NCBI RefSeq assembly: GCF_900232105.1
Contig: NZ_LT934425.1
Location: 90,001 to 122,000 of the forward strand
Reading direction: 5' to 3'
Length of the DNA: 32,000 nt
Source of the DNA: Candidatus Kuenenia stuttgartensis
Lineage (GTDB): Bacteria; Planctomycetota; Brocadiia; Brocadiales; Brocadiaceae
Shown here: positions 3,784 to 20,115 of the stretch, one piece after another
Numbering within the stretch: the first letter of the stretch is position 1
How the letters are laid out: each line of letters begins with the position of its first letter
The notes under the pieces: model-generated
Databases searched by the model: none
Told to the model about the DNA's origin: nothing
Seen by the model: only the letters and a program-made list of their open reading frames with translations
Program-made: the position numbers and the translations under genes

Positions 3784-4427
3784 GTCTCAATCCCTTCTAC
3801 ATCAGGTCAATGATTTCCACCGACAAAATCAAGTACATAAGGAGCTGCTCTTTGGAGTCTCAATCCCTTCTACATCAGGTCAATGATTTCCACGCAATTG
3901 TGTCGGCGATGAGCTATTCCCGGTAACAATGACCGTCTCAATCCCTTCTACATCAGGTCAATGATTTCCACAAAATGGGTATGCTCCTCATCAAGCATTC
4001 TCAATCAAGGTTGTCTCAATCCCTTCTACATCAGGTCAATGATTTCCACGTGGAATGACGCGTGGCTTAGTAACAAGGACTGCGACGTCTCAATCCCTTC
4101 TACATCAGGTCAATGATTTCCACGGCAAACTGGAGGTGCTGGTCGGAGGGCAAAAGACACTGTCTCAATCCCTTCTACATCAGGTCAATGATTTCCACCG
4201 TTTAGTTGTATCGTGCGCGCGCACGGATACTTTTTTGTCTCAATCCCTTCTACATCAGGTCAATGATTTCCACGTATTAATATGTTAGACGGCGTTAACG
4301 AGGTATTTACCGTCTCAATCCCTTCTACATCAGGTCAATGATTTCCACAAAAGCACCTGCGATAGTAGCTAAAGCACCCGGCAACATAGCGTCTCAATCC
4401 CTTCTACATCAGGTCAATGATTTCCAC
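3784..4427 (-). CRISPR. CRISPR array 1: 9 identical 37-bp repeats, 8 spacers of 36-42 bp
   Basis: Plus-strand repeat is gtctcaatcccttctacatcaggtcaatgatttccac. Repeats start at 3784, 3857, 3935, 4013, 4087, 4162, 4237, 4312 and 4391. The strand is inferred from the conserved leader on the high-coordinate side. The transcribed repeat GTGGAAATCATTGACCTGATGTAGAAGGGATTGAGAC ends in ATTGAGAC, a typical 8-nt Cas6 5-prime handle. Confidence 0.97.
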
Positions 4428-4632
4428 AGCGGCATATGTAACTTTAGAATTAACAACTACTTGCAAGGCCATTTCCTGTAACCTCCACAATCTGTAATCA
4501 TTACACATCGAAATTTTCATCCTTTCCATTAAAAAATTGTCTTAACCTCTTAAAACACAATCGATTATGATTTTCCTGTAACCACCCCCTTTTTAGCTAT
4601 GTTTTAAAAATCCGCTAAATGCTTATCACACT
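4428..4632 (-). promoter_or_regulatory. CRISPR leader 1
   Basis: About 190 bp is nearly identical to the sequence abutting array 2 (19915-20115). It is AT-rich, lies directly between the cas2 stop and the first repeat, and contains tttcctgtaacc twice (4472-4483 and 4572-4583). Confidence 0.75.
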
Positions 4633-4908
4633 TTAAATTACGTATATATTTTCAATCTTTGAGACCTTTCCCTTTCCCATTACTTCTATCCTTTTTTCAC
4701 ACCCGGCACAAATAGAATAAATACGGATACTGTCGTCTTCTGCGATTATAATCTCCTGTATTCTTTTTATCATTTTGCCTAAAAGCTTCTCATCCAAAAT
4801 ACATTCAAATACACTATACTGCACCCGGTCGCCAAAGTCTTCCAGGATTTTTGCGAGCTTTGTCCTTCTTCTTGTTTCCGGAATATCATAGGAAACCAAA
4901 TAAAACAT
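4633..4908 (-). CDS. cas2: CRISPR-associated endoribonuclease Cas2
   Basis: 91 aa. MFYLVSYDI...RRRTKLAKILEDFGDRVQYSVFEC is the canonical Cas2 N-terminus. It starts 3 nt downstream of the cas1 stop. Confidence 0.9.
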   Translation of the reverse strand: MFYLVSYDIPETRRRTKLAKILEDFGDRVQYSVFECILDEKLLGKMIKRIQEIIIAEDDSIRIYSICAGCEKRIEVMGKGKVSKIENIYVI

Positions 4909-4911
4909 TGG

Positions 4912-5913
4912 TTATATCTCCATTACAAATGAAGTATAAGGAATATTATTTTGTATATGAGACGCTAAATTCTCCGCTTGTATGCGAAAACATTTTCTGA
5001 AGGTGGTGTTTTCTTTTTGTTGCGGATGAAGAAATTCCCTGTTTATCATTGTTTCATATTCCACAAAATACCGTTTCAATGGCTCTCGTTTCAAATACAC
5101 CCCTCCCGTACTCGGATTAGCATAGAAATCTTCCTCGCAAAATATCCGGTTATTGATAAGATTCAGGGTGATACGATCTGCAATGGGGGCACGAAACTCC
5201 TCCATCAAGTCAGACGCAAGGGAAGATCTGCCATAATCAATTCCATGATAATATCCAAGATAAGGATCAAAGCCCAGCCCGTCAAGGAGCGAGGATATTT
5301 CATTAAAAATCATCGTATAATTTAATGAAAGCAATGCATTCACGGGATCAGTTGACGGGTACTTTTTCCGTCCTGGAAAAGCAAATGCAGAAAGGATCAT
5401 TTTCCCAAAAGACGTAAAATATACCCTGGCGGCATTTCCCTCTATACCAAAAAGCTGGCTGATGTTCGCCGCTGATTCCACTTCATTTAATCGCAGGGAA
5501 AGGTCGTCCATTTCTACATCAAAGCTATTGCGGGGGTGATTATACGAAAACGACCGTACCAGTTGTATACAATTTTGTATCTTCCCGCAAACAATTACTT
5601 TTGCAAAAGCCAGCCGAAAGTCGTCATTCCAATATTGTTTAAACTGTTGAACACGAAGGGTAATATTTTTGGTGTAAGGGGAGGTTATCTGTCCAATGAG
5701 TTTCCCTGTTCTCGTGAGAATAGCCATTTCTATTCCATGCTCAAAGAGTTCGTGTACCGCTTGTGTGGTAAACTGTACATTTCCAAATATGAGAACGGCG
5801 TCTATTTTATGGCATTGCACTTCAAGAAGCACTTTGTCATCCTTTTCAATAATTAACCGGTCACCGCTTTTCCGTAAAATGGAATTCTGTTCAGTCAGGT
5901 AGAGGTTTGCCAT
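4912..5913 (-). CDS. cas1: CRISPR-associated endonuclease Cas1
   Basis: 333 aa. Cas1-like N-terminus (LYLTEQNSILRKSGDRLII), central GLGFDPYLGYYHG...SLASDLMEEFR, and the position next to cas2. Confidence 0.9.
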   Translation of the reverse strand: MANLYLTEQNSILRKSGDRLIIEKDDKVLLEVQCHKIDAVLIFGNVQFTTQAVHELFEHGIEMAILTRTGKLIGQITSPYTKNITLRVQQFKQYWNDDFRLAFAKVIVCGKIQNCIQLVRSFSYNHPRNSFDVEMDDLSLRLNEVESAANISQLFGIEGNAARVYFTSFGKMILSAFAFPGRKKYPSTDPVNALLSLNYTMIFNEISSLLDGLGFDPYLGYYHGIDYGRSSLASDLMEEFRAPIADRITLNLINNRIFCEEDFYANPSTGGVYLKREPLKRYFVEYETMINREFLHPQQKENTTFRKCFRIQAENLASHIQNNIPYTSFVMEI

Positions 5914-6839
5914 ATTTTCCCTTGCTTTCTTTGCTTAAAATAAACTTCAAGGTCTAATGGTTTTGGAAAGAACAACACCTTCCGTTCCTTCTTTGGCCGG
6001 TCGAAAGGCACCATGATCATACTCTTTACAAAAATAACTCCCAGGAATTTAAAACCCTGGTCAAAGTTAATCACCTGTTCTTCATCCAGTTCTAAAAGAA
6101 GTTTTTCCAATATTTTCTTTGTTAATTTGAGTGATTCTTTTGCCATTCCGGAATTTTTGCAAAGGATGATGAAATCATCTGAAAATCGCACAAGCTTATA
6201 TCCGTTACGAGTAAGTTCTTCATCGAATTCATCAAGATACAGATTTGCAAGAATCGGGGAGATGGGTGAACCTTGCGGAATCCCTTTTTTTAATGTGGTT
6301 ACCGTTTTTCCATCCCATACTTCACCTTTTAGCCAGAGCCCTACCAGGTTTTGAATACATGGATCGTGAATATAACATTTGAATTTTAACAGGAGCAATG
6401 AATAATCCACACTATCGAAAAACGCATCGATATCTGCATCCACAACCCACTGATAACCCTGTTCATAATACTCCCTGACTTTATAAACCGCCTGTTTTAC
6501 GGAACGGCCTTTCCGGTAGGCAAAGCTGCACTCTTCAAATTCTTTCTCAAGAACAGGTTCAATGAGTTGCAATACGGCTGCCTGTACTATCCGGTCTCTC
6601 ACTGAAGGGATGCACAATGCCCTGGCCTCTCCGTTTCCCTTATCAACCAGGATTCTTAAAAGAGGGAGAGGAAAGTACGTTTGTTCCGTAAGCTCCTTGC
6701 GCATAATTCTTAGATTCAGATCAAGGTTTCCCTCATAACGTTCGATAGTAACACCATCCGCGCCTGCACAACCGTGATTTTCCTTAACGGCATCAAAGGC
6801 GGAATATAACGCTGAGAGATTTAATGCAAATTCCTTCAT
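5895..6839 (-). CDS. Stand-alone group-II-intron-like reverse transcriptase associated with cas1
   Basis: RT motifs present: IPSVRDRIVQ, DADIDAFFDSV, GIPQGSPISPILANLYL, RFSDDFIIL (the YxDD position reads FSDD) and FLGVIF. ATG at 6839 is preferred; the ORF track uses TTG at 6845. The 3-prime end overlaps cas1 by 19 nt. Confidence 0.85.
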   Translation of the reverse strand: MKEFALNLSALYSAFDAVKENHGCAGADGVTIERYEGNLDLNLRIMRKELTEQTYFPLPLLRILVDKGNGEARALCIPSVRDRIVQAAVLQLIEPVLEKEFEECSFAYRKGRSVKQAVYKVREYYEQGYQWVVDADIDAFFDSVDYSLLLLKFKCYIHDPCIQNLVGLWLKGEVWDGKTVTTLKKGIPQGSPISPILANLYLDEFDEELTRNGYKLVRFSDDFIILCKNSGMAKESLKLTKKILEKLLLELDEEQVINFDQGFKFLGVIFVKSMIMVPFDRPKKERKVLFFPKPLDLEVYFKQRKQGKIWQTST

Positions 6840-6841
6840 AC

Positions 6842-7081
6842 TCAAAATGGGTCATGGTCAAATATGACAACATCACCGGTAACAGGTGATCGATATATCA
6901 ATTTCTTCGCTTTTCCGTGCAAAGCATGTGCAACCGCCAGGTAAAGCCAGACAGGGGCACTACCGGTCAAAATAACTTCGTCTCCTTCGCCGGCGAGATT
7001 CATACATTTGCCTAAATATTCATCTAAATTTGAAAGTTTAGCAACATTATCAAAAACCGTTGAGAGATCAATAATAATCAC
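6842..7081 (-). CDS. csx3: Csx3-like protein (Crn3-type cA4 ring nuclease family)
   Basis: 79 aa. VILTGSAPVWLYLAVAHALHGKAKKLIYRSPVTGDVVIFDH matches my recollection of the Csx3 core (V.SGRGPIWLH..LAH.....V..YDPRLG.VVV.SH). The GTG start overlaps the upstream stop (GTGA). Confidence 0.65.
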   Translation of the reverse strand: MIIIDLSTVFDNVAKLSNLDEYLGKCMNLAGEGDEVILTGSAPVWLYLAVAHALHGKAKKLIYRSPVTGDVVIFDHDPF

Positions 7082-7974
7082 GAATCCAGCTCCCCACTAT
7101 CAGCAGAAGAAAGGAGAACATCATAACTCACCACATGCCATGGTAAATTTGTTTGAACATATTGCAATTTGATTTTCAAATTAAAGGTCATTGAAGCGCC
7201 TATAACACTTGTTGGTTTTTGACCTCCCGTAATATCGATCATAATTTCTTCTTCTTTATATTTATTTTTCTTAAATTCACTGAGCAAAAACCATAGTGCG
7301 TGTGAGAGCCTGTCAAATTCTTCAAAATCAAAACCTTGATAACCATTTATTGTTACATCAGGAGAAAGTTGCAATAGTTTGTTTGTGTCCCCTTTTCGTG
7401 CTAATAGATAAAAACGAATCTGTCTAAAAGAATTATATTTTTCGCAAAGATGAAGAAACATATATACTTGATTGATAGATTCCGGTGAACAAATAAGAGT
7501 AACGGTTTCCAGAATACCCATATGATGCCGTATTGCCCTGAGCGGCATTTCCCATTTCCACAAAATTGGGTGTTGTGGTTCTTGTTTTAATAGTTCAATG
7601 GTTTCTATATCTTTATCTATTTCATAAATAAGGTGTAAACCCTTCGGAATTCCGTTTGTTTCCTCAAGTTTCTTCGGAAGATTTGAAAGGAAAAGAACAA
7701 GGTGTTTCCTTTTTTCAGGATTTTCATCATATGAAAAATATCGGGTACGAGGCCTGAAGAAAACATTTCTCTTTCTATACAATAGATAGGCCATAGAGAA
7801 AAAGAAAACAACAGAGACAATTTTTAACAATCGATGCAACATTATATTTTCTTTCGTCAGATATTCAAAAAAATCCCAAAAAACTTCGGTCGCCCATCCC
7901 GCGCTTAATAATACACATAGAGTAATAATAAACGGCGATAATTCTTTTATTCTTGTTTGTATCTTTCCTCTCAT
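7078..7974 (-). CDS. Membrane-anchored (2 TM) CARF-domain protein, Cam1-like architecture
   Basis: 298 aa. Hydrophobic helices at about aa 13-31 and 48-66. Beta1-like HLVLFLSNL at aa 91-99 and the CARF hallmark DITGGQKPTSVIGASMT at aa 247-263. It sits in a type III locus. Confidence 0.55.
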   Translation of the reverse strand: MRGKIQTRIKELSPFIITLCVLLSAGWATEVFWDFFEYLTKENIMLHRLLKIVSVVFFFSMAYLLYRKRNVFFRPRTRYFSYDENPEKRKHLVLFLSNLPKKLEETNGIPKGLHLIYEIDKDIETIELLKQEPQHPILWKWEMPLRAIRHHMGILETVTLICSPESINQVYMFLHLCEKYNSFRQIRFYLLARKGDTNKLLQLSPDVTINGYQGFDFEEFDRLSHALWFLLSEFKKNKYKEEEIMIDITGGQKPTSVIGASMTFNLKIKLQYVQTNLPWHVVSYDVLLSSADSGELDS

Positions 7975-8084
7975 TAGATTCGATTATCTCCATTATTTGA
8001 ATAAATACGGAAGGTAATGTTTCGTGCTCCTTCTGTTAAACCCTTGGCGGTGTTAGCGCTTATTGAACCAACCGATCTTAAGAG

Positions 8085-8228
8085 TTAATCAATTAAATTA
8101 TATGCACCTCTACCACGGGGAAATTTCTCAACATCAATCAGTGCCAATAAATATAAATTGTGTGCCTCCTGCCATACTTTCAATTCGGTAAAATGATGCA
8201 GTATGTTTTTATGCGTATTTTTGTTCAT
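8085..8228 (-). pseudogene. N-terminal fragment of a four-helix-bundle (23S rRNA IVS / S23-type) protein gene
   Basis: A 47-aa ORF, MNKNTHKNILHHFTELKVWQEAHNLYLLALIDVEKFPRGRGAYNLID*, has the family N-terminal pattern (L.VWQ.A..L......FP) but stops about 70 aa short of normal length. Confidence 0.5.
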
Positions 8229-8380
8229 CTGTCATCTGGCCACTCGCCTCTGGTAACTGTGTTCTGTCCCTACGACAACAGGCCAAACAAATGCAATGTT
8301 CAATTGTGAATGAAGAATTATCAATTCGTATCTTTCTGTATCCTTCGATTCATCATTGTTCATTCTCCATTCCTAATTAA

Positions 8381-8540
8381 TTTCTAGCCCCTTATTCATC
8401 AGGTCAATGTTTCCTAGGGTACCCTTTTTAACATCAATAAAGACAGCCACTTATAAGGCCAATTCCTGTTATCATCCCCTTTTTTTACGATAAAAAAAAT
8501 TCGTTAACCTATTATAAAATAAGGTTTTATATATAATTTT
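8381..8540 (-). other. Vestigial CRISPR module: one degenerate repeat plus a leader-like sequence
   Basis: 8381-8416 ttctagccccttattcatcaggtcaatgtttcctag resembles the 37-bp repeat (core tcatcaggtcaatg). The following acttataaggccaattcctgttatcatcccctttttt...aaaaaattcgttaacct resembles leader segments acttgcaaggccatttcctgtaacc...ccccctttt...aaaaaattgtcttaacct. Confidence 0.5.
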
Positions 8541-8645
8541 AGCCAATTTCTCACAAAAACGGCTCTACCACAGTATTTCTTGCCACGGAGAATACAGAGG
8601 GACAAGGAATAAATTCTCTTGTAGAAAACAAAATTCTTCTCCACA

Positions 8646-10031
8646 TTAAAGTAACGACTCAATTAATTTATTTACTCTGATAAACGGATTCTCAATTGCT
8701 TTTATATCCAGATTCTCTATAACAAGAACAAGTTGCTCTAAGGAAAATCCTGGAATTATTTTTTCTATTTTTTCTTTGGAAACGCCTTCAAAACCGTGTC
8801 CCAAGGGGCTTTTATTTCTTAGTGTATTGAGACGTTGAAGTTCTCTTAAAGTATTAAATATATTTGAGAAAGAGGTGTTCCCCTCGTTTTTTTGTGTAAT
8901 AAAATTCAAAATAGCCATCAAGGTTGGAACAGAAGGCTTGTTGTAGAGCAGTTTATTGTTTTCAGAAGGGTACTGCTCTAAATAAGGTATCAAACCCTCG
9001 ATATTTTGAATACCCCTTGAGTAATTTTCATAGGTATTCTTGTTTTTATCTGTGTCGGTAACTATTTCAAGATTTGTTTCAACAATGTAACGCAACACCG
9101 CTTCCTGAAAACGAAATAATCTTCCAAGGAAATCAAGATATTCCCCCTTTTTCCATTTAATCTCCGCATTAAAATAGAGTTCCAATATTAAAGATTTAAG
9201 ATCATGATCCAAAAGTTCCTGAAATTCCGATGTAAATACAATTAAAAGGTTTCTAATTTTGCCAGACACCTTTGCAATGAGTTTTCCCGATTGGCTCCTT
9301 GCCAAGTCGAAGTTGAAATTAAGTCGGTGACGAGTTATTTCCGCAACTGAAGCAATATCTTCCTGGTTCAAATCCCTTAAAAGAGAAGACGCCACGCTAT
9401 ATTCAAAATTTTCTATTTGTTTCAATACAAGAGCAATTTTGGAATTTTTAATAAGTTGTTTTCCTATTTGCAAGGGAACAACAATACCGCTACCTTCTAA
9501 GGAATAGACAGGTACACACTTTTGCTGAAAAATACTGATTGAGTGGAAGCACAACGCCATATTGCAGGCAGGTATTCCACCTGCAAGAGAAACGTAAATT
9601 TCATCAAAATGATCATCGAACATACTTTTTTTACCACTGAGAAATTTACCGAAATATTCGAACATTGAGTCATAAAGGTTAGGATTTGCATCTATTTCTT
9701 TGATAGCAACTTTCGTTATTGGTTTTTTACCACGATATAATTGTTGAATGCATTTTGCAAAGTAGAGAGTATCGTTACTTCGATAATGTTCTGCAGCATC
9801 CTCTTGATTGGTAGAAAAAAGCAATAATTCAATGTCGGAGTCTGGATTATTATCTTTGAGGTAGTTTATTATGGGGGATAAAATAGGTGTTGAGAGTTTT
9901 TCAGAGACACTTTTGAAGTTCTCGTTCATCCTTTCACCTTCTATCCTTGCAGGCTTTATTGCCTCACCCTCTAATTGAAGGTCGCGACTGCCTATATTGG
10001 CAATAAGAAGTATTTTTATTTTGTTATGCAT
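8646..10031 (-). CDS. csm6: Csm6-like CARF-HEPN ribonuclease
   Basis: 461 aa. Rossmann-like N-terminus (KILLIANIGSRDL, LLLFSTNQ, SLAGGIPACNMAL). C-terminal LRNKSPLGHGF fits the Csm6 HEPN R-N-x5-H-G-F motif. It follows csm5 in III-A order. Confidence 0.6.
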   Translation of the reverse strand: MHNKIKILLIANIGSRDLQLEGEAIKPARIEGERMNENFKSVSEKLSTPILSPIINYLKDNNPDSDIELLLFSTNQEDAAEHYRSNDTLYFAKCIQQLYRGKKPITKVAIKEIDANPNLYDSMFEYFGKFLSGKKSMFDDHFDEIYVSLAGGIPACNMALCFHSISIFQQKCVPVYSLEGSGIVVPLQIGKQLIKNSKIALVLKQIENFEYSVASSLLRDLNQEDIASVAEITRHRLNFNFDLARSQSGKLIAKVSGKIRNLLIVFTSEFQELLDHDLKSLILELYFNAEIKWKKGEYLDFLGRLFRFQEAVLRYIVETNLEIVTDTDKNKNTYENYSRGIQNIEGLIPYLEQYPSENNKLLYNKPSVPTLMAILNFITQKNEGNTSFSNIFNTLRELQRLNTLRNKSPLGHGFEGVSKEKIEKIIPGFSLEQLVLVIENLDIKAIENPFIRVNKLIESLL

Positions 10032-10038
10032 GATTATT

Positions 10039-10434
10039 TCAGGTTCTAAAGTTTAATATTTTGTTATCAATTTCACATTCGAAATCATAAAAATCAATCG
10101 CTAACGCATTACAATCGGGGCATTTCGCTAAAGTAATTGCAATTTCTGCAAATTCCTTTTTTAACCTTTTCAATCCTGATTTTGTTCGAATTCCATTAAC
10201 ACGTTTGTGGATTTCTATACATTCATCAGCTTCTGGTTCACATTTCTCACAACCTCTGACCCTATGAATGTTCGCTAAAAGAAAACAGCTAATTTCATAT
10301 TTAATGTCATCAATGTTTGTTACCGTATTAGCATCAATGTCTTTTTTGTTTTTTCTAGCAATAACGAATTCATATATAACAACTAAAGCAGCTACACCTC
10401 CTAGTATTGTGGGAATTATTATTATCCAGTCCAT
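10039..10434 (-). CDS. Small membrane-anchored Cys-rich protein of unknown function
   Basis: 131 aa. N-terminal TM helix (WIIIIPTILGGVAALVVIYEFVI) followed by RKNKK. The soluble part has C62-x2-C65 and C105-x2-C108 plus C50, C72, C120, H57 and H76. It lies 22 nt after csm5 and 7 nt before csm6 on the same strand. Confidence 0.6.
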   Translation of the reverse strand: MDWIIIIPTILGGVAALVVIYEFVIARKNKKDIDANTVTNIDDIKYEISCFLLANIHRVRGCEKCEPEADECIEIHKRVNGIRTKSGLKRLKKEFAEIAITLAKCPDCNALAIDFYDFECEIDNKILNFRT

Positions 10435-10456
10435 AATTTATTTAAAGAATATTTCT

Positions 10457-11626
10457 TCAAATATTATTTTCTACTACACACCAGCCTAATATAGCATAGC
10501 TTGAATGGTTACTTGTTATTATCCTTCTTGACTTAGGCGCAGGTGAATCTCCCCGATCTGTGAAGAGTATATTTCTTAAGTCTTGTTTCGTCTCTGCTGG
10601 CAGAAGCATTGCTACGGACGTCCCTAAAAGTCCCATGCCCCAACCCAGTCTAAAATTTGGAGTTTCATTTCCAAAATTTAAAATATTCTTCAGTTTCAAT
10701 TTTTGCGAAAAGAACGATTCTTCCTCTCTTAATAAATCGGAGGTCATTTCATTCACTGCTTCAAAGGGATTAGATAAAATTTTCTTTAGTTCTGAGAAGG
10801 CTACACCGAAGGAATTTGATGGGTTATTTTCTTTAAATTTATTTAGCAACCATTCGTCAATTTTACATTGAAAGGTAAATTCATTACCAGCAGGTATGCA
10901 TTCAACAAAAACAGACCAGTCTTTTGGGCTTTTAGCAGAGTCAGCACTGAATATTTTTACTTCTTCAAGATGTAAATTGCCGGTATCAATAGAGTTTGAA
11001 TCGGAAATCTGTATGCACCTTAAGATATCAGAATGCGGATCATATCGTTTCTGGTTATTTTTGATAACAAATTTTTGAAAGATTTCTTCGTCGAGTCTTT
11101 GTGCAAACCATTGTTTAAACCTTTCTTTAAACCAGGAATAGCCCTGCTCTCCTCTGGGATCTTTTTTATATTCCAAAAGTTTTTTTTGTACAAAATCAGT
11201 TAATATCTTTTTACGTAAAGTATCATTAAGTCTTTTTAAGATGACATACATTATTGACGTCCTTATCACCCCTTTTATGGCAGAACCGGGAAGATAAGGC
11301 TGTGAAAATGCATTTCTAATGCAGGATCTTATATTACCTTGGATATTGATGTTGCAATGACTGGAATAACTGGATGTTTTATCCAGGAATTCCTGTGTCA
11401 GGAGTTTTTTTTCTTTAAGGAAGGCATCAACGCTAAAATCTTTGCCTTTTTGTTTGATTCCGGTTAAGAAGTTATCAAGAAGTTGTCTATCGTACAGTTC
11501 TTTTGAGAGCTTATCTTCGTTAATGAAATAACATTTATTTCTAAAAATGAGATATTCCATCGGTAAAAAATTTCCCTCTTTTCCTCCAATGTGAATGGAA
11601 GAAAGGGTTTTAAGCTTCAATTTCAT
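10457..11626 (-). CDS. csm5: Type III-A RAMP protein Csm5
   Basis: 389 aa. LKTLSSIHIGG..., YLPGSAIKGVIRT, a C-terminal G-rich loop RLGWGMGLLGTSV, and the position after csm4. Confidence 0.75.
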   Translation of the reverse strand: MKLKLKTLSSIHIGGKEGNFLPMEYLIFRNKCYFINEDKLSKELYDRQLLDNFLTGIKQKGKDFSVDAFLKEKKLLTQEFLDKTSSYSSHCNINIQGNIRSCIRNAFSQPYLPGSAIKGVIRTSIMYVILKRLNDTLRKKILTDFVQKKLLEYKKDPRGEQGYSWFKERFKQWFAQRLDEEIFQKFVIKNNQKRYDPHSDILRCIQISDSNSIDTGNLHLEEVKIFSADSAKSPKDWSVFVECIPAGNEFTFQCKIDEWLLNKFKENNPSNSFGVAFSELKKILSNPFEAVNEMTSDLLREEESFFSQKLKLKNILNFGNETPNFRLGWGMGLLGTSVAMLLPAETKQDLRNILFTDRGDSPAPKSRRIITSNHSSYAILGWCVVENNI

Positions 11627-11636
11627 AATTGATATC

Positions 11637-12611
11637 CTATGCTAAAATTGGCACGGTAAAGGCAAGTCCATTTCTATAAACGGGATGAAAATCTTTTTTT
11701 TCTAATATTTCCGGTGTAACGGAAACAAGATTCCCTTGTATGGTTTGTTTGAACACTGAACCTTCAGAGAACATGCTTACTGTTTTTCGTTTGTATTGAG
11801 CTTTACTGAATGGAGTAGACATCCACCCTCTTCGCTCAATCAATCCATATGAAGCGCCTTCAATAAGACTCTCTAAAACCCCTTCAATATTCATGTGGTA
11901 AAGCGATAATGTGCAATGCGCATTGCCTTTAAAGGCAAGAAGATTTTTCCATTTTTCATTTATGTCTTCCCAACATAATTTGTATCTTCCCAATCCAATG
12001 TTTCTTTTTCCACCGAGCCCAGATTCCCCAAGGTATTCAAGGGACGACTTTATCTTCTCTTCAATGGATAAATCATTTATTTTGACGATGCAATATAAAC
12101 CGCAATCTTTATTGAATCTCACTGTTTTCATGCGGAATATTTGTGCATTTAAGGTTGAGCGATCAATGGTAGCTCGTGGAATCAAATCAAATTGGTAACA
12201 TGAGTCGTAGTCCGGCAATACTACTTTTTTGAGATAATTCTCAATTTTTTCTCTTTTTGCCCACTGTTCAAAAAGTTCAAAAGGTAAAAAAGATATATTC
12301 TTAACCTTTTTGCCAAATTCTTCGCGAATCTCAGCGTTTTCAAACCCAGGGGGAAGTGTATGTGGTTTGGGTAAAAAAAATGTTTCGTTGCTATAAAGAA
12401 AACAGGAGGTAATCAGAAAAGGAGCGGCATCTTTGAATTTGGCAAGCATGGATTCCATATCCGTTTTTCCATAGACTATTCCCCAAGCATGACATATGGC
12501 GCTAAATATGGTGTCGGAGTGAACCATTTCACTTGATTCTTCAACGCCGATTCCGGCTTCACCAAAATAAGCAGAAGTATAAAATTGAAATTTTGCAATT
12601 TTAGTAGACAT
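11637..12611 (-). CDS. csm4: Type III-A RAMP protein Csm4
   Basis: 324 aa. N-terminus FQFYTSAYFGE...VHSDTIFSAICHAW, G-rich LGESGLGGKRNIGLGRY, and the position between csm3 and csm5. Confidence 0.8.
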   Translation of the reverse strand: MSTKIAKFQFYTSAYFGEAGIGVEESSEMVHSDTIFSAICHAWGIVYGKTDMESMLAKFKDAAPFLITSCFLYSNETFFLPKPHTLPPGFENAEIREEFGKKVKNISFLPFELFEQWAKREKIENYLKKVVLPDYDSCYQFDLIPRATIDRSTLNAQIFRMKTVRFNKDCGLYCIVKINDLSIEEKIKSSLEYLGESGLGGKRNIGLGRYKLCWEDINEKWKNLLAFKGNAHCTLSLYHMNIEGVLESLIEGASYGLIERRGWMSTPFSKAQYKRKTVSMFSEGSVFKQTIQGNLVSVTPEILEKKDFHPVYRNGLAFTVPILA

Positions 12612-12620
12612 ACCAACCCC

Positions 12621-13418
12621 TTACAAAATATCAAACATAGATAATATTTCGTCAACATTCTGCTTGCATTCATCAATGGTTTTATTTTCCAAGATTGAAC
12701 TATTGCTTTTTTTGTCTTCTTCGGAGGTTGCCCTGTAGAATTCCAATTTTCTTGCCATGAATTTATCTATTGTAAAACCGACTTTGCCGTAACCTCTTGA
12801 ACCATGTCCTCCCAGATAATCGTCTTGCAATAAACTTATTAACTCTAAAAGGTTGGATAAATCTTTTTTTGCCTCGCCATTACTAGCCTCCACGTTATAT
12901 ACGATTTCAAACTCGAATTTGGCGCCAGCGGGAATACGCTCTAATTGTCGAGGATTTGCGGCGGCAGTAACTCTATCAAGTGAGTTTTCAAATTTCCATT
13001 CCGTGTATTGCAAGCCGGTATCAATTTTTTTTAATTTTTCTCTACTCTCTTCCTCCAATAAACAATCTCTGACAGAAAGCCTGGAAGGAAGATTTTCATC
13101 TGCATTACTTCCGGTAGATCCGAAAAGTCTACAGACGTAGCACTGAGAGTCTGTGCATTCATGCCTCCAAACGTCTCCCCCACCTGATCTATTAAACTGC
13201 TTATTCTCCATTCGCTCAAAAAGTGATCTTAACTTTCCTTTCAATGAACTTCCGGGTATGTACGGTTCTCTTGTAAGAGGATCTCTCATTACCGGTGCGT
13301 CGATACCACCAATATCCATTTTTTCTTTTGAGCCGCCAATATGAAGTCCAGTTTCACATTTTATCTTTCCCAGAATAAATATTTTTCCTAGTAATGGTTT
13401 TTCTTGAAGCCTTGGCAT
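12621..13418 (-). CDS. csm3: Type III-A backbone RAMP Csm3 (Cas7 family)
   Basis: 265 aa. GKIKCETGLHIGGSKEKMDIGGIDAPVMRDPLTREPYIPGSSLKGKLRS is canonical Csm3, including the DxP(V/I)xRD region. It also has C-terminal GGHGSRGYGKV. Confidence 0.9.
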   Translation of the reverse strand: MPRLQEKPLLGKIFILGKIKCETGLHIGGSKEKMDIGGIDAPVMRDPLTREPYIPGSSLKGKLRSLFERMENKQFNRSGGGDVWRHECTDSQCYVCRLFGSTGSNADENLPSRLSVRDCLLEEESREKLKKIDTGLQYTEWKFENSLDRVTAAANPRQLERIPAGAKFEFEIVYNVEASNGEAKKDLSNLLELISLLQDDYLGGHGSRGYGKVGFTIDKFMARKLEFYRATSEEDKKSNSSILENKTIDECKQNVDEILSMFDIL

Positions 13419-13436: not shown

Positions 13437-13871
13437 TTATGATTCCCGACCGCCATGATACCGATGATATGCAACAATCGACTCAACGAACTTGTGAAAT
13501 CTTTCAAAATCCTTTTCAACCTTAACTTTGTCCATACAGGGATCAAGAACTTCCATAAGGGGGACAACCTCTCTAGACCTGCCTGCCGCATATGCAAGTT
13601 TGGGCTTTAACAGAATTACTTTTTCCTTATAATGCAACTTAGGATTTGCTATCCCCTCGGCCCGTATGGTATTTACCATGTCGAGAAATTTACGAATTTG
13701 ATTTGTTTTGAGACGCACTTTGTTTGCGAGAAAGTCACCAACGTCTTCTGCGTATTTCACAAGATGCGATGCCGGCAAACTTCCCATATCTGGAAGAGCC
13801 TTCAATTCTTTCACTATGCCGTTTATTACAGAAGGTGGACCGCTTGGCACATTTTTTTTAAAATTTGACAT
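13437..13871 (-). CDS. csm2: Type III-A small subunit Csm2 (Cas11)
   Basis: 144 aa, helical. TNQIRKFLDMVNTIR and LLKPKLAYAAGR are Csm2 signatures. It sits between cas10 and csm3. Confidence 0.8.
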   Translation of the reverse strand: MSNFKKNVPSGPPSVINGIVKELKALPDMGSLPASHLVKYAEDVGDFLANKVRLKTNQIRKFLDMVNTIRAEGIANPKLHYKEKVILLKPKLAYAAGRSREVVPLMEVLDPCMDKVKVEKDFERFHKFVESIVAYHRYHGGRES

Positions 13872-13892: not shown

Positions 13893-14360
13893 TTAATGAA
13901 GATTTTCTGCTCTACTGAGCAACTCTATCCATATTAAAGGAATTCTTAAATTAATAATATCATTCGGATTCATTAAAAAACTTTCAAATTTGTTTCTGTC
14001 AGTCTCATTTATTTTTTCGCTTAACTCCTTTCTTACTCTCGCAATTACATACGCCATTCTCGGCAGATATATGACACCTTCCCTTTCCCACAATTCAAAG
14101 AGGGAAAAGAGTTTGTAAATTAATCCATGCGCATATTCGGATTTAAAACGATTTTCATTTTGATCTATTTTGCCCATGGTTTTAAATAAATTTATGAACT
14201 TCAATACATCATCCGTAGTTTTGTCCCACGAAAAAACCTGCTTGATTGTATTCCTTGTTCCAAACCTTTTATTTTTTAACGCTGGATTATAAAATAATGC
14301 CAGGCTGTTCCGTCCTGAATCTTTTGCAAGATTTTCAGCGTCTCCTGCAAGATCTGCTAG
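13893..14360 (-). pseudogene. cas10: cas10/csm1 C-terminal fragment, separated by IS insertion
   Basis: Encodes ADLAGDAENLAKDSGRNSLALF... (the Cas10 AK..GKN region plus the D4 helical domain). The first 18 codons of track ORF 13893..14414 are IS-derived. Joined to 16365-18441 at a single CTAG it gives one 2541-nt in-frame ORF. Confidence 0.8.
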
Positions 14361-16364
14361 CGTGAGTTTATCACGAAATAAGGTGTAAGACAAAGACATC
14401 AAGTTGCAATCCAATGATTTGTATCGGGTTGCGACTTTTTTTGTCTAAAAAATTATGTATACACTGAATAATACTATATTTATATTGCATTATATGCCTG
14501 TATATACTATTATACACGGAGTATTAATCTATTACGTATACACTAACAACTAATAGCCATGGCTACCATTCAATCTAAAAACTCCAGAGGTTATAAATAT
14601 TGGTATATTGTCGAATCGCGGCGCGTTAACGGCAAGCCCAGGCCCATCGTCCTGGCCTATCTTGGCAAGGCAGACGATTTATTAAAACAACTGCAAGGTC
14701 TTACCGAAAAATTACGGCTCAAATCTTATTCACATGGCGCGGTAGCCGCATTGCTAAGTGTGGCCAATGCCCTGGACGTCCCTTCCGTGATTAATAAATA
14801 TATAAAGTCGCCACGGCAGTATTGTGCTAAAAAACCTGTTCGAAATAATCTGACCGCCGGAAGTACCCTCTTGTTGGGTGCCGTGGGGAGAGTGTGTGTG
14901 CCTACCAGCAAAAGAGGATGGTGGGATTGGGCAAAGACGACTACTGCCGAATACTTACTCAGACACAGCTTGAGTAAAATAGACAGTCAGCATTTCTGGG
15001 ATTTGATGGATGCACTTCCTGAAGAATCCATTGCAGAAATCGAGCGCGAATTAATTGAAAAGACATTTAAAACATACAACCTTCAAAGCGACACACTGTT
15101 TTTTGATACAACCAATTTTTTCACGTATATCGACACAACTAATCTGCGATGCACTATTGCCCGGCGGGGGAAAAACAAACAAAAGCGATACGATCTCAGG
15201 CAGGTCGGGTTGGCGATGGTCGTTACACGTAACGACATGATACCGTTGTTTCACCATACCTATCAGGGGAACATGGCGGATGCAAAGGTGTTCAGCGCGG
15301 TTCTTGAGACGATAAAAGACAGGATGACCGGATTAGGTTTCGACAGCAAAAAGCACACTATTGTTTTTGATCGTGGAAACAATTCCATGGACAATATGGC
15401 TATTGTAGAGAGATTGGCATTGCATTACGTTGGAGCGCTTACACCGTATCATCACAAGCAGTTGGTAGGGGATGCCATGTGTAATTTCAGGGAATATGAC
15501 GTTGACGGCAGTAAGATACAGGTGTACCATGACAAACGGGTTATTTGGGGGCAGGAAAGAACCGTTGTCGTATTTATTTCCGAGAAATTAAAGGTTGGGC
15601 AATTAAGGGGAATGTCTCAGTCTCTGGAAAAGGCAGAACATCAGTTAAAGCTCTTACAGCAGCATCTGTGTAATCCAAAGGGAAAGATGCGGGACAAAGA
15701 GGGTCTGGAGGATACGATAAGAAGTGTAGTGAAATGTCAATTTGCGAAGGATGTTATCGATTGGTCGTTAAAAGAGGTATCTGAAGGCAAGTTTCAATTG
15801 AATTTTTCAATCGACCAGAAAAAGCTCGAAGAAATAGAAGGGGAACTGGGGTTCAGGATTCTTATGACAGACCATCACGATTGGGATACCGCGGACATTA
15901 TAAAAGCCTACTATGGGCAATCAAAAATTGAACATGCCTTTAGAAATCTCAAGAACCCCTATCACCTTGCTTTAAAACCGCAATTTCACTGGACGGATCA
16001 GAAAATCAGGGTGCATTTTTTTATTTGCGTCCTCGGATACCTAATGGCGGCGATTGTGTGGTATCAGGCAAAAGCGCACGCACAATTTAGTGGAACGTTA
16101 GATACCCTGTTAGACACCCTTAATAATATAAGGCTTTCTGCTATGCTTGAAGAAACAAAGGCCAGAGGGAGAGTTAAGGCTACCTACAAATTGGAAGAAA
16201 TGTCCGACAAGGAATCTCTGTTGATGAATGCGTTAGGCATTATGGATTTCCACAAACATCGGCTGAAACTTCAAGGACTCAGTGTATACAATTGATGTTG
16301 TGCTTAACGCATTGACTGTATTTATGTTACGTTGCTTCATGCCTTATTTTGTGATAAACTCACG
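14361..16364 (+). mobile_element. IS4-superfamily (IS1634-like) insertion sequence, 2004 bp, inside cas10
   Basis: Terminal inverted repeats are cgtgagtttatcacGaaataagg (14361-14383) and ccttattTtgtgataaactcacg (16342-16364), matching 22 of 23 with weaker similarity extending to about 33 bp. It is flanked by CTAG at 14357-14360 and 16365-16368, consistent with a 4-bp target duplication. It carries a single transposase ORF. Confidence 0.85.
14559..16295 (+). CDS. DDE transposase, IS4 superfamily / IS1634-like
   Basis: 578 aa. The N-terminus SRGYKYWYIVESRRVNGKPRPIVLAYLGK is typical of IS1634-family transposases. DDE candidates are FFDTTNF, VFDRGNNS and YYGQSKIEHAFRNLK (a Y-x2-R/Q-x3-E-x6-K type motif). 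Confidence 0.85.
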   Translation: MATIQSKNSRGYKYWYIVESRRVNGKPRPIVLAYLGKADDLLKQLQGLTEKLRLKSYSHGAVAALLSVANALDVPSVINKYIKSPRQYCAKKPVRNNLTAGSTLLLGAVGRVCVPTSKRGWWDWAKTTTAEYLLRHSLSKIDSQHFWDLMDALPEESIAEIERELIEKTFKTYNLQSDTLFFDTTNFFTYIDTTNLRCTIARRGKNKQKRYDLRQVGLAMVVTRNDMIPLFHHTYQGNMADAKVFSAVLETIKDRMTGLGFDSKKHTIVFDRGNNSMDNMAIVERLALHYVGALTPYHHKQLVGDAMCNFREYDVDGSKIQVYHDKRVIWGQERTVVVFISEKLKVGQLRGMSQSLEKAEHQLKLLQQHLCNPKGKMRDKEGLEDTIRSVVKCQFAKDVIDWSLKEVSEGKFQLNFSIDQKKLEEIEGELGFRILMTDHHDWDTADIIKAYYGQSKIEHAFRNLKNPYHLALKPQFHWTDQKIRVHFFICVLGYLMAAIVWYQAKAHAQFSGTLDTLLDTLNNIRLSAMLEETKARGRVKATYKLEEMSDKESLLMNALGIMDFHKHRLKLQGLSVYN

Positions 16365-18441
16365 CTAGAAGATGTAAAGGGTAGTTTTCGTCGGCAGTGA
16401 TAATACCTCCTGAAATGCTAAGCCTACCGCAGGTATAACTCTTGAAACTATTATTAATGTCGAAGGCAACTTCAACTACATCATCCCATGAACCAACTAA
16501 AAACAAATCATCACCACCGGAATAGATTATGCTTATATTTCTACCTTTGTTTTCCGTGTGGCTTTTCTCGCTAATATCAAGGGCGCTATATATACTGCTA
16601 TCAAGCTTTCTCTCACAAATACGCCTGATATAATGTTTAAAAAATAAGGTCAATTCTCTTGAGAGTGTGGATAGTTTGGAGAAGGTTCTGTTCTGTTTGT
16701 CTAAACCTTTTAAAAATACTTTCGCCAGATGATCAATATCCATTCTTAATACACCAATCCTTGATGCGCCTCTCGATGCCAAGCTGAGCCCCTGAAAACT
16801 AGCAGTAGATCTTATGGATGCTTTCCCTTCCAATTCCTTACTTTTGGCTTTTTCCGGGAGATCATTTACGATACGTACATAATTACAATAACAGAGTTGA
16901 GAGGTGTTATGGGTTGAGAATTTATTTATGTCGGAATTATTTAGAAGATAAGTCCTGTCTGCATCATTTGTCCGATTCTCAAAAGAATAGGATATAAAAT
17001 GCCCTTTAATTTTAGGCAAACATATCGTGTCTTCAATTTTTTCATCTACATTCTTTCCTTGTATCTCCGTGCAATCAATTAGGGTATCTCCCAAAGAGTA
17101 TAATTTTTTGCAAAAGTCGCAAGATTTTATTTTTTTCTGAAAAATAATTAGATCAGTTAAAGTAACATCATCTCTGTAGCAAATAGAACATTTTTCTAAA
17201 GGGTCTTTTGTCTCTATAGGACTGAGTATCTCCGACAAATTGTTGCTGAATTTGTTTGATTTTACTTTTGATAACTCATTGCCCAAGTTAGACCATACTT
17301 CGCATATTTTATCCGTAGATAAATCATCTCCTGAGACCGGAACGGAGGTCATCGCGAGAAATAGCGTGTGTCGAAAATTGGCCAATAACCAGTTGTTAAT
17401 TTTTTGTGCAAAATGATTTATTTCTAATTCAATACCATCCTTGTTATGAGAAAGGATATAAAATTTGCCTCCGCCATTGTAAATAATGTTTGCTCTGGTT
17501 AAATTGAAGTACTCTATTATTTCAGAAACCACGTGTTCCGTAAATAGCTCAAGAAAAAAAGACCGTGCTCTTAGAGTTTTTAAGGCACCTTTTGAAGATA
17601 TTGTATAGATAAAGGTTTGAACCCCGGAGATATCACCCCCAATGAGTCTGAAATAATTTTTATTTCTGTCTAATATTTCATCCTTAAATATATTTGCATT
17701 AAACATTTCTTTTTTTAATTCAATAAAATAATTATAAAGGCAGGAAGCTATGGCGGATGTTACCTTGGCATGGTCAAAAAAAGAAACGTCTGAGTATAAA
17801 GCCACATTATTTTTTGTTTTTACTGTTTCCGAAGGTACGGAAGACCAATATTTTTCTAATAATACGATAAGTGCTGAAATCGATAAACCTTTTTGAATCC
17901 AAATTGTAAAATCATTCTCAAATTGCTTGAGAAGGTTGTCGTAATCGTACGCTTCTATTTTTATATGCTCCCTCTCTTCTGGATAGCGTATTTCTCTTGA
18001 AAGCGGTTTTAATTTATGAAAATAACATTTTTCTTCAGATATATTTTCTTTCAAATGGATTTTTGAAAATATTGACATTAAGGGCTCATGCTTTAGGTTG
18101 ATTGATTCAACTATTTCTTCGTCTTTTAGTGACGTTGCTAAATTATTTGCCTGGTAGCAAATCAAGGTTAAATTGTTATTTTCTATTTCTCTAATGTATT
18201 TTTTATTATGGAGCTTTGTGTACGTTGATATTGTCGATGGCAAACCATTCATTACATGCTTATCTAGCCATTCCATACCCATGGAACAAGAGTCTCTTCC
18301 ATTATTATCTTGATTTGCACGAATTACTATCTTTCCTATATCATGTAATAATGAGCCAAGGATTATAGATTTATATTCCCTCGTCTGTTCTTCATTCATA
18401 TGATTCTCCATAATTTCGTTTCTCTTATTCAAAATTAGCAA
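16365..18441 (-). pseudogene. cas10: cas10/csm1 N-terminal fragment (HD + Palm/cyclase), truncated by the IS
   Basis: HD motif SLLHDIGK, first Palm GGDISGVQTFIY, Cys cluster CSICYRD..CDFC, and cyclase motif YSGGDDLFLVGSWDD. It ends ...ENYPLHLLA* with the stop supplied by the IS end. Confidence 0.85.
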
Positions 18442-18659: not shown

Positions 18660-19073
18660 TCATTCTTTCTCCCATGTACTAATCATCTTACTCAACATAG
18701 CCCGTATCTCCTGGCATGTTTGTTCCCGTTTCACAAATACCATTGAATCTATGAACCCAGATCTTTTTAGTTTTTCATACCAATCAATTGTTCCATTTGC
18801 AGACCCTCTTGAAATATATAAATAATGTACAAACTCTTACTCTTACTCTTACTCTTACTCTTACTCTTACTCTTACTCTTACTCTTACTCTTACTCTTTC
18901 CTTCTTCCATATCTCTCTGTAATATTAGCGGTAATTGAAAAAACACTTCGTATTATTTGATTTGCTATTATCTTGCCAACCTCTGTTTTTGGGAATTTTT
19001 CTATGTCCCTTATCACTTCATCAAATAAATTCATGCCCGTTTGCCATACTTTCAGTTCCCCGAAATCTTTCAT
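18660..19073 (-). pseudogene. Four-helix-bundle (23S rRNA IVS / S23-type) protein gene interrupted by a stop-containing microsatellite
   Basis: The N-terminal part is MKDFGELKVWQTG...ANITERYGRRKE (track ORF 18891..19073). The C-terminal part, FVHYLYISRGSANGTIDWYEKL...STWEKE*, is read from 18833 down to 18660. Without the 60-bp repeat the gene would encode a contiguous 117-aa family-typical protein. Confidence 0.7.
18834..18898. repeat. Hexanucleotide microsatellite (CTCTTA) of about 10.8 copies
   Basis: Ten perfect tandem CTCTTA units span 18834-18893, followed by a partial ctctt. On the coding (minus) strand it reads (TAAGAG)n. Confidence 0.95.
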
Positions 19074-19129
19074 GCTTTTTCGTTATTTCCTTTAAACTTG
19101 CAACATTCATCTTTCAACTCCGCCATTGG

Positions 19130-19914
19130 TGGCTTATCCCTTCTACATCAGGTCAATAATTCCCACGCACAAACAGAAACTAACCCTGATAATTTGCTTT
19201 TTAGTTCTGTCTCAATCCCTTCTACATCAGGTCAATGATTTCCACAAGAAATTTTATCTGCTTTTGACGCAGACTTTGTTTCTGTTTGTCTCAATCCCTT
19301 CTACATCAGGTCAATGATTTCCACGATGGTGTGCTATATGTTGTGTGGAATGTGTTTTTGCTGTCTCAATCCCTTCTACATCAGGTCAATGATTTCCACC
19401 CAATGCAATAACGGGGGAGACGTCTTTACCTTTGTCTCAATCCCTTCTACATCAGGTCAATGATTTCCACCAAAAAGAAGATTTTCCTGATGCAAAAGTA
19501 TGTATCGTCTCAATCCCTTCTACATCAGGTCAATGATTTCCACGTCAATAGCACTGGCGATGACTTTCCGTTCTCCAAGTCTCAATCCCTTCTACATCAG
19601 GTCAATGATTTCCACGTTCCTAATCCGGCGCCACACATGCCTTTTTCATACCACGTCTCAATCCCTTCTACATCAGGTCAATGATTTCCACCGGGAAAGC
19701 GACCATACCTACTGGTACGGCGATGAGCGTCTCAATCCCTTCTACATCAGGTCAATGATTTCCACCTGAAATTGATGACAGTGGGTTCTCCAATCCGTTT
19801 TCGTCTCAATCCCTTCTACATCAGGTCAATGATTTCCACCCAGATTCATATGAAGCGCCAGAATGTCTTGATGATAAGTCTCAATCCCTTCTACATCAGG
19901 TCAATGATTTCCAC
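19130..19914 (-). CRISPR. CRISPR array 2: 10 perfect plus 1 degenerate 37-bp repeat, 10 spacers of 34-42 bp
   Basis: Same repeat as array 1. Repeats start at 19209, 19288, 19363, 19434, 19507, 19579, 19655, 19729, 19803 and 19878. The degenerate terminal copy at 19130-19166 (tggcttatcccttctacatcaggtcaataattcccac) is at the leader-distal end, which supports minus-strand transcription. Confidence 0.97.
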
Positions 19915-20115
19915 GCCGGCATATGTAACTTTAGAATTAACAACTACTTGCAAGGCCATTTCCTGTAACCTCCACAATCTGTAATCATTACACATCGAGA
20001 TTTTTATCCTTTTTCTTAAAAAATTCTCTTAACCTGTTAAAACACAATTGATTATGATTTTCCTGTAACCACCCCCTTTTTTAACTATGTTTCTAAAATC
20101 CGTTAACTCTTTAAA
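19915..20115 (-). promoter_or_regulatory. CRISPR leader 2
   Basis: Nearly identical to 4428-4632; after the first 3 nt, the next roughly 80 nt are identical. It contains tttcctgtaacc at 19959-19970 and 20059-20070. Confidence 0.75.

Follow-up and report, generated by a model that had tools for sequence, protein, structure and literature searches.

The window analysed here is a 32,000-nucleotide stretch of DNA from Candidatus Kuenenia stuttgartensis (contig NZ_LT934425.1, positions 90,001 to 122,000; coordinates given without a contig name are counted within it). It carries a type III-A (Csm) CRISPR locus in which csm5 and csx1 are separated by a single small gene (10039..10434, minus strand). 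The 131-residue product of this gene, referred to below as the target, is the founding member of a four-sequence family and is probably a true accessory component of type III-A systems from a narrow clade. The gene is real and conserved at the protein level, and it is very likely a type III-linked membrane-protein gene. By analogy with small membrane proteins of other CRISPR loci, we tentatively favour the view that the target forms oligomers in the membrane and there acts as an effector or amplifier of type III signalling, its regulatory part being a metal-stapled bundle.

The gene was defined from the list of open reading frames (ORFs) and their translations, from a named NCBI protein and from three relatives (P0002, P0003 and P0004). 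It consists of 131 codons on the minus strand beginning with ATG, and because an in-frame TAA lies two codons 5' of this ATG, it is the sole possible start. All three relatives begin at the same aligned methionine in the family alignment. The target is 100% identical to the hypothetical protein KsCSTR_23030 of Candidatus Kuenenia stuttgartiensis. The end of csm5 lies 22 nt before the target gene, and the gene for a CARF-HEPN protein starts 7 nt after it. These gaps, and the identity of the neighbours as judged by PADLOC and Pfam, agree with a first-pass annotation of the window, which had placed a 131-residue ORF between csm5 and a csm6-type gene without naming its strand. Cysteines occur at positions 50, 62, 65, 72, 105, 108 and 120 of the protein and histidines at positions 57 and 76.

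An exhaustive phmmer search over 1.84 billion representative proteins returned just three relatives, each aligned over its full length at 31-34% identity: P0002 (127 aa, E = 5e-21), P0003 (134 aa, E = 3e-19) and P0004 (133 aa, E = 8e-15). When the family profile was run against a word-indexed database of 5.8 billion clusters, the same four proteins were found again. Scans of genome, metagenome and viral contig DNA seeded with the family profile, and tblastn against plasmids, recovered no further members, and a genome-contig scan with Csm5 gave no matches. The four sequences all come from Kuenenia or from uncultured metagenome contigs, the three relatives each forming a singleton cluster, and they make up a family that is real, previously unnamed and very rare. 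The target gene is nucleotide-identical across ten Kuenenia assemblies, and it was found in more than 200 assembly blocks, each time between csm5 and csx1. Among the family members the proportion of nonsynonymous differences (pN) is 0.35-0.44 against a saturated proportion of synonymous differences (pS) of 0.71-0.86, and all indels are whole codons. Together with the full-length relatives, these values provide the protein-level conservation whose absence the first-pass annotation had named as grounds for discarding its proposal. Sixteen positions are invariant (M1, W3, I7, T9, G12, G13, A15, E22, L53, C62, C65, G87, K92, C105, E119 and I122), and 8 of the 16 fall within the first 22 residues.

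Genomic linkage is equally consistent. In each of the four cases the family gene comes immediately after csm5, on its 3' side (the window and its equivalents L001-L010, and contigs L011, L012 and L013), so that the proposal of a candidate type III ancillary protein with homologues near cas genes is borne out. The locus of P0003 (L012) reads cas10-csm2-csm3-csm4-csm5-[P0003]-csx1-MNT-HepT-cas1, with gaps of 10 nt and 11 nt flanking P0003, and the Csx1 at the matching position is 25% identical to that of the window. In the P0004 locus (L013), csm5 is followed by P0004 and then by a gene whose product starts MLKILLSCIGNRDP and has a CARF-like N-terminus. The P0002 contig (L011) is just 506 nt long and opens with the C-terminus of csm5. 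Where it can be read, the next gene is therefore CARF-HEPN or CARF-like: csx1 in the window and L012, and the CARF-like N-terminus in L013. The loci of the members are all type III-A (cas10, csm2-csm5) and range in guanine-plus-cytosine (GC) content from 36 to 47%. Between the window and the P0003 and P0004 loci Csm5 is 52-56% identical, as against 31-34% for the target family. A type III-associated gene is defined operationally by recurrent linkage to type III cas genes, and on this definition the target qualifies. The effector survey of Hoikkala et al. passed over candidates whose loci included a known effector (PMC11229360), and under this exclusion rule the target gene would have been hidden from the survey.

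The N-terminus of the target is predicted to form a single transmembrane (TM) helix with its N-terminus outside and its C-terminus inside (N-out/C-in; residues 3-24, 10363..10428, minus strand), based on hydropathy, insertion energy, the structural model and conservation. The Kyte-Doolittle (KD) 19-mer mean is 2.39 in the target (residues 3-21) and 1.55, 1.38 and 1.73 in the other members, while the soluble part reaches at most 1.29. Summed Hessa-type insertion energies (dG), on a scale applied without position weighting, are -1.2 kcal/mol for the target and +1.1, +2.5 and +0.1 kcal/mol for its relatives, with +7.8 to +13.7 kcal/mol for 19-mers of the soluble part. The helix is followed by the basic juxtamembrane stretch RKNKK (residues 27-31, 10342..10356, minus strand). 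The one N-terminal helix and the RKNKK patch described by the first-pass annotation are thus both recovered, the helix as a prediction. Across the family the juxtamembrane stretch holds 4-6 lysines or arginines in 4/4 members, and its exact sequence is not kept. According to the positive-inside rule, basic residues flanking a TM helix mark its cytosolic side. Just two residues precede the helix and 4-6 Lys/Arg follow it, which by this rule points to an N-out/C-in orientation, and the target would thus be a bitopic inner-membrane protein. The TM helix is also the best conserved segment of the family, with 57% mean pairwise identity and 8/22 positions invariant, compared with 14-39% for the soluble helices and 17% for the linker. 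On a helical wheel S6, T9, G12, G13 and A16 share one small-residue face. A TM helix conserved above its soluble domain and carrying such a face suggests specific helix-helix packing, beyond what a passive anchor would need.

An AlphaFold2 (AF2) run with the four-sequence alignment gave a mean predicted local distance difference test score (pLDDT) of 77.6 and a predicted template modelling score (pTM) of 0.60. In the model a TM helix (residues 6-28) and a disordered linker (29-40) lead into helices 41-60, 66-79, 85-103 and 106-127, which form a predicted cytosolic four-helix bundle (residues 41-127, 10054..10314, minus strand; block pLDDT 85-90). Two candidate ligand pairs lie in its turns, namely C62-E-K-C65 between helix 1 and helix 2 (10240..10251, minus strand; both cysteines invariant) and C105-P-D-C108 between helix 3 and helix 4 (10111..10122, minus strand; C105 invariant). 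Position 108 is cysteine in 3/4 members and histidine in P0004. In the AF2 topology both pairs sit at hairpin tips at the same end of the up-down-up-down bundle, far from the membrane. Sequence pattern and model together suggest a structural Cys3-Cys/His metal site that would staple the two hairpins and is most likely occupied by zinc; the Cys-to-His exchange in P0004 favours a Zn-type site. The two CxxC pairs had been placed correctly by the first-pass annotation and are the conserved core of the domain, whereas the extra cysteines it had mentioned (here C50, C72 and C120) are not conserved, leaving C62, C65 and C105 as the only invariant ones. Its suggestion of a Zn-stabilised domain is compatible with the location of the ligand set in the model. 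The most conserved motif of the soluble part is RTKSGLKRLKK (residues 83-93, 10156..10188, minus strand; G87 and K92 invariant), with the family consensus [RK]-[TS]-x-[SI]-G-[LF]-[KR]-[KR]-h-K-[KR]. The model would place it in the loop between helices 2 and 3 and the beginning of helix 3, at the membrane-proximal end of the bundle.

The target belongs to none of the named families searched, in line with the first-pass annotation, which had recognised no Cas family. Pfam, NCBIfam and PADLOC gave no significant match for the target or for any of the four members, and the CARF and SAVED models in these three collections did not match the target. Profile and phmmer searches of the PDB returned no meaningful match, the best being an unrelated lectin (E = 7e-4) with no passing stretch. 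Foldseek with the target model found only generic helical bundles in the PDB (best E 2.2) and in BFVD (E >= 0.45 overall). Weak matches to Arv1 (0.033), Csx28 (0.03), DUF5460, CSL zinc ribbon, LmuB, small_EYxxD and RsrA were judged compositional, since each occurs in one member and covers the TM helix, coiled-coil-like helices or the cysteine pattern. Homology to other proteins of the same operon was likewise rejected, with hhalign E values of 0.27-0.72 for Csm2, Csx1 and the TM-CARF protein (0.36 for the last).

The closest architecture found in the literature is that of Csx28 from type VI-B2 systems, a likeness of design and not of membership. Csx28 is a 177-residue protein in which a single TM helix at the N-terminus is followed by a four-helix bundle in the cytosol, and it assembles into an octameric pore; the pore lining is positively charged, and its function needs an active Cas13b HEPN ribonuclease (RNase) (bioRxiv 10.1101/2021.11.02.466367). 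The target resembles it in small size (131 aa), in a single N-terminal TM helix followed by a predicted cytosolic four-helix bundle, in being encoded beside a HEPN RNase (Csx1 in place of Cas13b) and in positively charged cytosolic surfaces. The PADLOC Csx28 model (PDLC01606) reaches E = 0.03 (12.2 bits) in 1/4 members, over the TM helix and linker (residues 2-58), and with PADLOC at E <= 10 the family matches no models besides Csx28 and LmuB. Csx28 carries a divergent HEPN Rx4-6H motif in its last helix, whereas the target family has no conserved Arg...His pair and instead has C-P-[DS]-[CH] at the equivalent helix 3-helix 4 junction and the second pair at the helix 1-helix 2 turn. Csx28 is linked to cas13b in type VI-B loci, while the target loci are all type III-A, and the octameric pore is a feature of Csx28, the target being known here from its sequence and a monomer model.

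A functional precedent comes from Csx23 of Vibrio cholerae. It is a TM protein whose non-CARF domain binds cyclic tetra-adenylate (cA4), whose oligomer is assembled through the TM part, and for whose C-terminal domain (CTD) a crystal structure is available; the contacts to cA4 are very few and consist of one Arg and an Arg/Phe pair (PMC11014256). Like the target as predicted, Csx23 is a type III ancillary protein with an N-terminal TM region and a small non-CARF cytoplasmic domain, and it offers a valid analogy for cA4 sensing by a TM-anchored domain of non-CARF type. The first-pass annotation had cited it in this sense, and the functional analogy stands; a relationship does not follow from it, as the target has no sequence or fold match to any PDB chain. 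In addition, the passages of the Csx23 report that were consulted mention no metal site (PMC11014256), whereas the target family carries a Cys/His ligand set, and Csx23 is a cA4-binding tetramer while the target is known here as a sequence and a monomer model. Cam1 and other TM-CARF effectors, as well as Cap1 and Chp1, are also membrane-embedded type III effectors, and the target differs from them in having no CARF or SAVED domain.

Six further metagenome loci with a Csm5 45-53% identical to that of the window were compared, and the gene after csm5 varies among them. In L016 and L017 csm5 is followed directly by csx1. In L014 (1219-1473) and L019 (761-1033) it is followed by a 90-residue Mrr_cat-like PD-(D/E)xK nuclease (Pfam 1.2e-6), the start of which overlaps the end of csm5 in both. 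The gene in L015 (1520-2470) encodes a protein that lacks CARF and carries a HEPN-type RxxxxH motif (RNRYKGH) in its C-terminal region, and L018 (1572-2390) and L020 (3427-4245) encode P0005, a CARF-less protein of 272 aa with a HEPN-type motif (RNRISH) in its C-terminal region. A HEPN profile matched P0005 only (RiboL-PSP-HEPN, 9.5e-4, below the Pfam cut-off). The different genes found after csm5 in related loci mark this position as a variable effector slot, and because L016 and L017 run from csm5 into the same Csx1 subfamily without a target gene, the target is evidently dispensable for Csx1.

The L015 protein and P0005, both database singletons, have N-terminal helical regions of about 90 residues with cysteine pairs whose spacing resembles that of the target (C21-x2-H24 ... 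C62-x2-C65 in P0005; C22-x2-C25 ... C69-x5-C75 in the L015 protein). A single-sequence AF2 model of P0005 predicts helices 7-20, 25-38, 45-57 and 68-81, in an order like that of the target, followed by a linker and the HEPN domain, although its pLDDT of 45 is too low to establish a common fold, and after the second pair P0005 has the local motif CRDCSQVASDMYGIEQKL where the target has CPDCNALAIDFYDFECEI. Against a hidden Markov model (HMM) of the soluble domain, P0005 scored 12.3 bits, a value reached by 0/5000 composition-matched shuffles, and the L015 protein scored 5.8 bits, reached by 22/5000. Comparison of the target domain with the P0005-type region by hhalign gave E = 0.0014 with a probability of 17%, against 0.27-0.72 for three control proteins, and MAFFT unaided placed the ligands of the target, P0005 and the L015 protein in the same columns. 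The basic motif of the target (residues 83-93) is not common to the other two. The comparison was chosen by eye afterwards, matched about 21-24 residues and gave an alignment driven by cysteines, and a relationship between the target bundle and these N-terminal regions is suggestive only. That the Zn-stapled bundle is a new non-CARF sensor or regulatory module with two alternative outputs at the position after csm5, a pore-forming TM helix or a HEPN RNase (as in P0005 and the L015 protein), is a doubtful proposition; if true, type III signalling would have a new branch alongside CARF and SAVED.

Expression was considered through the shotgun proteome of strain CSTR1, which lists 1189 proteins (PMC7709395, Table S7). 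This proteome gives no support for translation of the target and counts, weakly, against it. KsCSTR_23020, 23030 and 23040 (Csm5, the target and Csx1) are all absent from the detected rows, and Csm3 (KsCSTR_23000) was detected but unquantified. The absence of the target is just weak evidence, since expression of the entire operon is very low and a small and, by prediction, membrane-bound protein is concerned. On the missing expression signal that the first-pass annotation had named as a further ground for rejection, this proteome thus has little to tell.

If the target is a membrane effector or amplifier, the small-residue face (T9-x2-G12-G13-x2-A16) would drive homo-oligomerisation in the membrane, and the oligomer would perturb the membrane in a similar way to Csx28, Csx23 or Cam1. 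Regulation would fall to the cytosolic bundle, which has the basic motif S-G-L-K-R-x-K-K at its membrane-proximal end. Two triggers may be considered, the direct binding of a nucleotide made by Cas10 and an event downstream of the adjacent Csx1 RNase, the latter in line with the dependence of Csx28 on active Cas13b. The occupants of the slot after csm5 in related loci (Csx1, an Mrr-like nuclease or CARF-less HEPN-motif proteins) support this interpretation. A number of observations weigh against it. The window already encodes a TM-CARF membrane effector, to which a second would be partly redundant, and the target is absent from L016 and L017 though the same Csx1 subfamily is present. There is no significant sequence or fold match of the target to Csx28, Csx23 or other proteins, and KsCSTR_23030 is not among the proteins detected in the CSTR1 proteome (PMC7709395). 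The TM score of P0003 is marginal (E6 within the helix; KD 1.38, dG +2.5), metal binding is deduced from the ligand pattern and the model topology, and with four sequences in all the conservation statistics are thin. As a special case of the membrane effector, the target could itself be a direct sensor of cyclic oligoadenylate (cOA) of the Csx23 type, in which a Zn-stapled oligomer would bind cOA through conserved residues of basic or aromatic type (K89, R90, K92, K93, Y116 and F118) and signal to the TM helices. We regard this as unlikely. It can draw on Csx23, a precedent for a small non-CARF domain on a TM helix that binds cA4 (PMC11014256), on a window locus that has all the marks of cOA signalling, and on the possibility that the Cys-stapled domain recurs in the N-terminal region of the CARF-less HEPN proteins that follow csm5 elsewhere, where a sensor would be expected. 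However, the basic motif, the best candidate for a ligand site, is not shared with those HEPN-fused proteins, and the similarity to them, picked by eye afterwards, covers about 21-24 residues and has a probability of 17% in hhalign. Confidence in the P0005 model is low (pLDDT 45), and PDB sequence and Foldseek searches found no similarity to a known cOA-binding fold.

The tight packing of the target gene between csm5 and csx1 (22/7 nt in the window; 10/11 nt in L012) is compatible with coupled expression, and with the adjacency to csm5 in all members it would also suit a membrane adaptor without effector activity of its own, the bundle of which recruits or holds Csx1 or the Csm5 end of the Csm complex and so localises or restrains the RNase. 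If the N-terminal domains of the HEPN-fused proteins are related, a shared docking module would explain a scaffold kept without the basic motif. A passive anchor, however, needs no TM helix more conserved than its soluble domain (57% against 14-39%), so that the pure membrane anchor for Csm6 or the effector complex suggested by the first-pass annotation fits poorly, and the same Csx1 subfamily is found without the target in L016 and L017. We regard an adaptor role as about as unlikely as the direct cOA sensor, the two being the main alternatives. Zinc-binding anti-sigma (ZAS) domains such as those of RsrA and ChrR are helical bundles with a Cys/His site and are often membrane-tethered, and the target might, as a regulator of this type, hold a partner such as a transcription factor until a signal or the oxidation of thiols sets it free. 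P0003 has a sub-threshold NCBIfam match to RsrA (E = 0.023), and H-x4-C-x2-C in 3/4 members comes near the ZAS pattern H-x3-C-x2-C. Yet the RsrA match, at 14.8 bits against a cut-off of 62.5, is far under threshold and confined to one member, and no member matches Pfam zf-HC2. P0003 lacks the histidine, the motif spacing differs by one residue, the domains come in the opposite order to those of membrane anti-sigma factors, and neither the window operon nor L012 contains a gene for a sigma factor. The chance that the target is a sequestering regulator of this kind is very small. That it is a hitch-hiking or decaying ORF with no CRISPR role is also highly improbable. Only four sequences were found among about 15 billion proteins, the gene is dispensable in sister loci and its product undetected in the CSTR1 proteome, and zero variation among Kuenenia strains leaves nothing to reveal selection there. 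Despite saturated synonymous sites and GC contents of 36-47%, however, the members agree in length and start codon, in the TM helix and the ligand set, and in their place after csm5, and retention of these features across diverged lineages is not expected of a neutral ORF.

Small membrane proteins of CRISPR loci, including Csx28, Csx23, Cam1, Cap1 and Chp1, represent distinct routes from RNA sensing to membrane depolarisation and dormancy. The target family has the same overall plan with a different cytosolic domain and a putative metal staple. If the target is an effector, it would add a new fold to type III outputs and raise the question of whether the trigger is a nucleotide or the neighbouring RNase; if its domain is common to the CARF-less HEPN proteins, that domain would be a new sensor or docking module. 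Since the family is very rare, with four sequences, the immediate impact is limited to the discovery of mechanism and does not extend to general biology.

All cas genes of the window locus lie on the minus strand. From the low-coordinate end, a CRISPR array with a 37-nt repeat (~3784-4430) is followed by cas2 (4633-4908), cas1 (4912-5913) and a separate, group-II-intron-like reverse transcriptase (RT) gene (5895-6845; NCBIfam 5e-83, below the model cut-off). The stand-alone RT gene shares 19 nt with the start of cas1, and the type III-A locus has in these genes an RT-associated adaptation module. A 79-residue csx3/crn3-like ring-nuclease ORF (6842-7081; PADLOC CARF_HEPN_CSX3 5e-38, Csx3 7e-15) stands between the RT gene and the TM-CARF gene with a 4-nt overlap with each. 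The TM-CARF gene encodes a 298-residue Cam1-like membrane effector (7078-7974; PADLOC TM+CARF 5e-29, CARF8--CARF_TM 1e-26) and is missing from the related locus L012. Next come csx1, the csm6-type CARF-HEPN gene (8646-10031; PADLOC Csx1 2.6e-151, Pfam Cas_Csm6_HEPN 1.9e-8), the target gene, csm5 (10457-11626; Pfam RAMPs 7e-18, PADLOC Csm5 2e-36), csm4 (11637-12611), csm3 (12621-13418), csm2 (13437-13871) and cas10 in two fragments (13893-14414 and 16360-18441), and beyond them a second CRISPR array (19121-19920) and cas6 (20206-21168). Cas10 of the window bears GGDD and HD motifs, and with two CARF proteins and a ring nuclease these mark the locus as a cOA-signalling type III-A system.

In the window strain this system is probably inactive, since cas10 is interrupted by an insertion sequence (IS), a ~2.0-kb IS1634-family element (14361-16363). 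The element carries a transposase gene on the plus strand (14559-16295; NCBIfam match 2.1e-84), terminal inverted repeats and a 5-bp target duplication (GCTAG). It is missing from strain CSTR1 and most other assemblies, in which Cas10 is intact at 832 aa, and positions 8601-11700 of the window are identical to CSTR1. The IS1634-family transposase has been reported in 20 copies in strain MBR1 and in none in KUST or CSTR1 (PMC7709395), so that the window probably derives from MBR1. The assembly GCA_900232175.1 carries two versions of the locus, L003 and L009 (OCTL01000054.1), one with an intact cas10 and the other with the IS in cas10 and with split csm4, csm5, csx1 and RT genes, which could reflect a strain mixture or uncorrected long-read errors.

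Several smaller features accompany the locus. A 670-nt non-coding gap (7975-8645) separates the TM-CARF gene from csx1, and in other strains only tiny ORFs are called there. It contains an orphan degenerate CRISPR repeat (8389-8419) with 81% identity to the array repeat over 31 nt. Between the second array and cas10, ~400 nt upstream of the start of the latter, stands a perfect tandem hexamer, ACTCTT in ~13 copies (18821-18910). Finally, each array has at the same end a copy of a 204-nt sequence (4391-4594 and 19878-20081; the copies are 95% identical), which starts inside the last repeat and is probably a shared leader or trailer.

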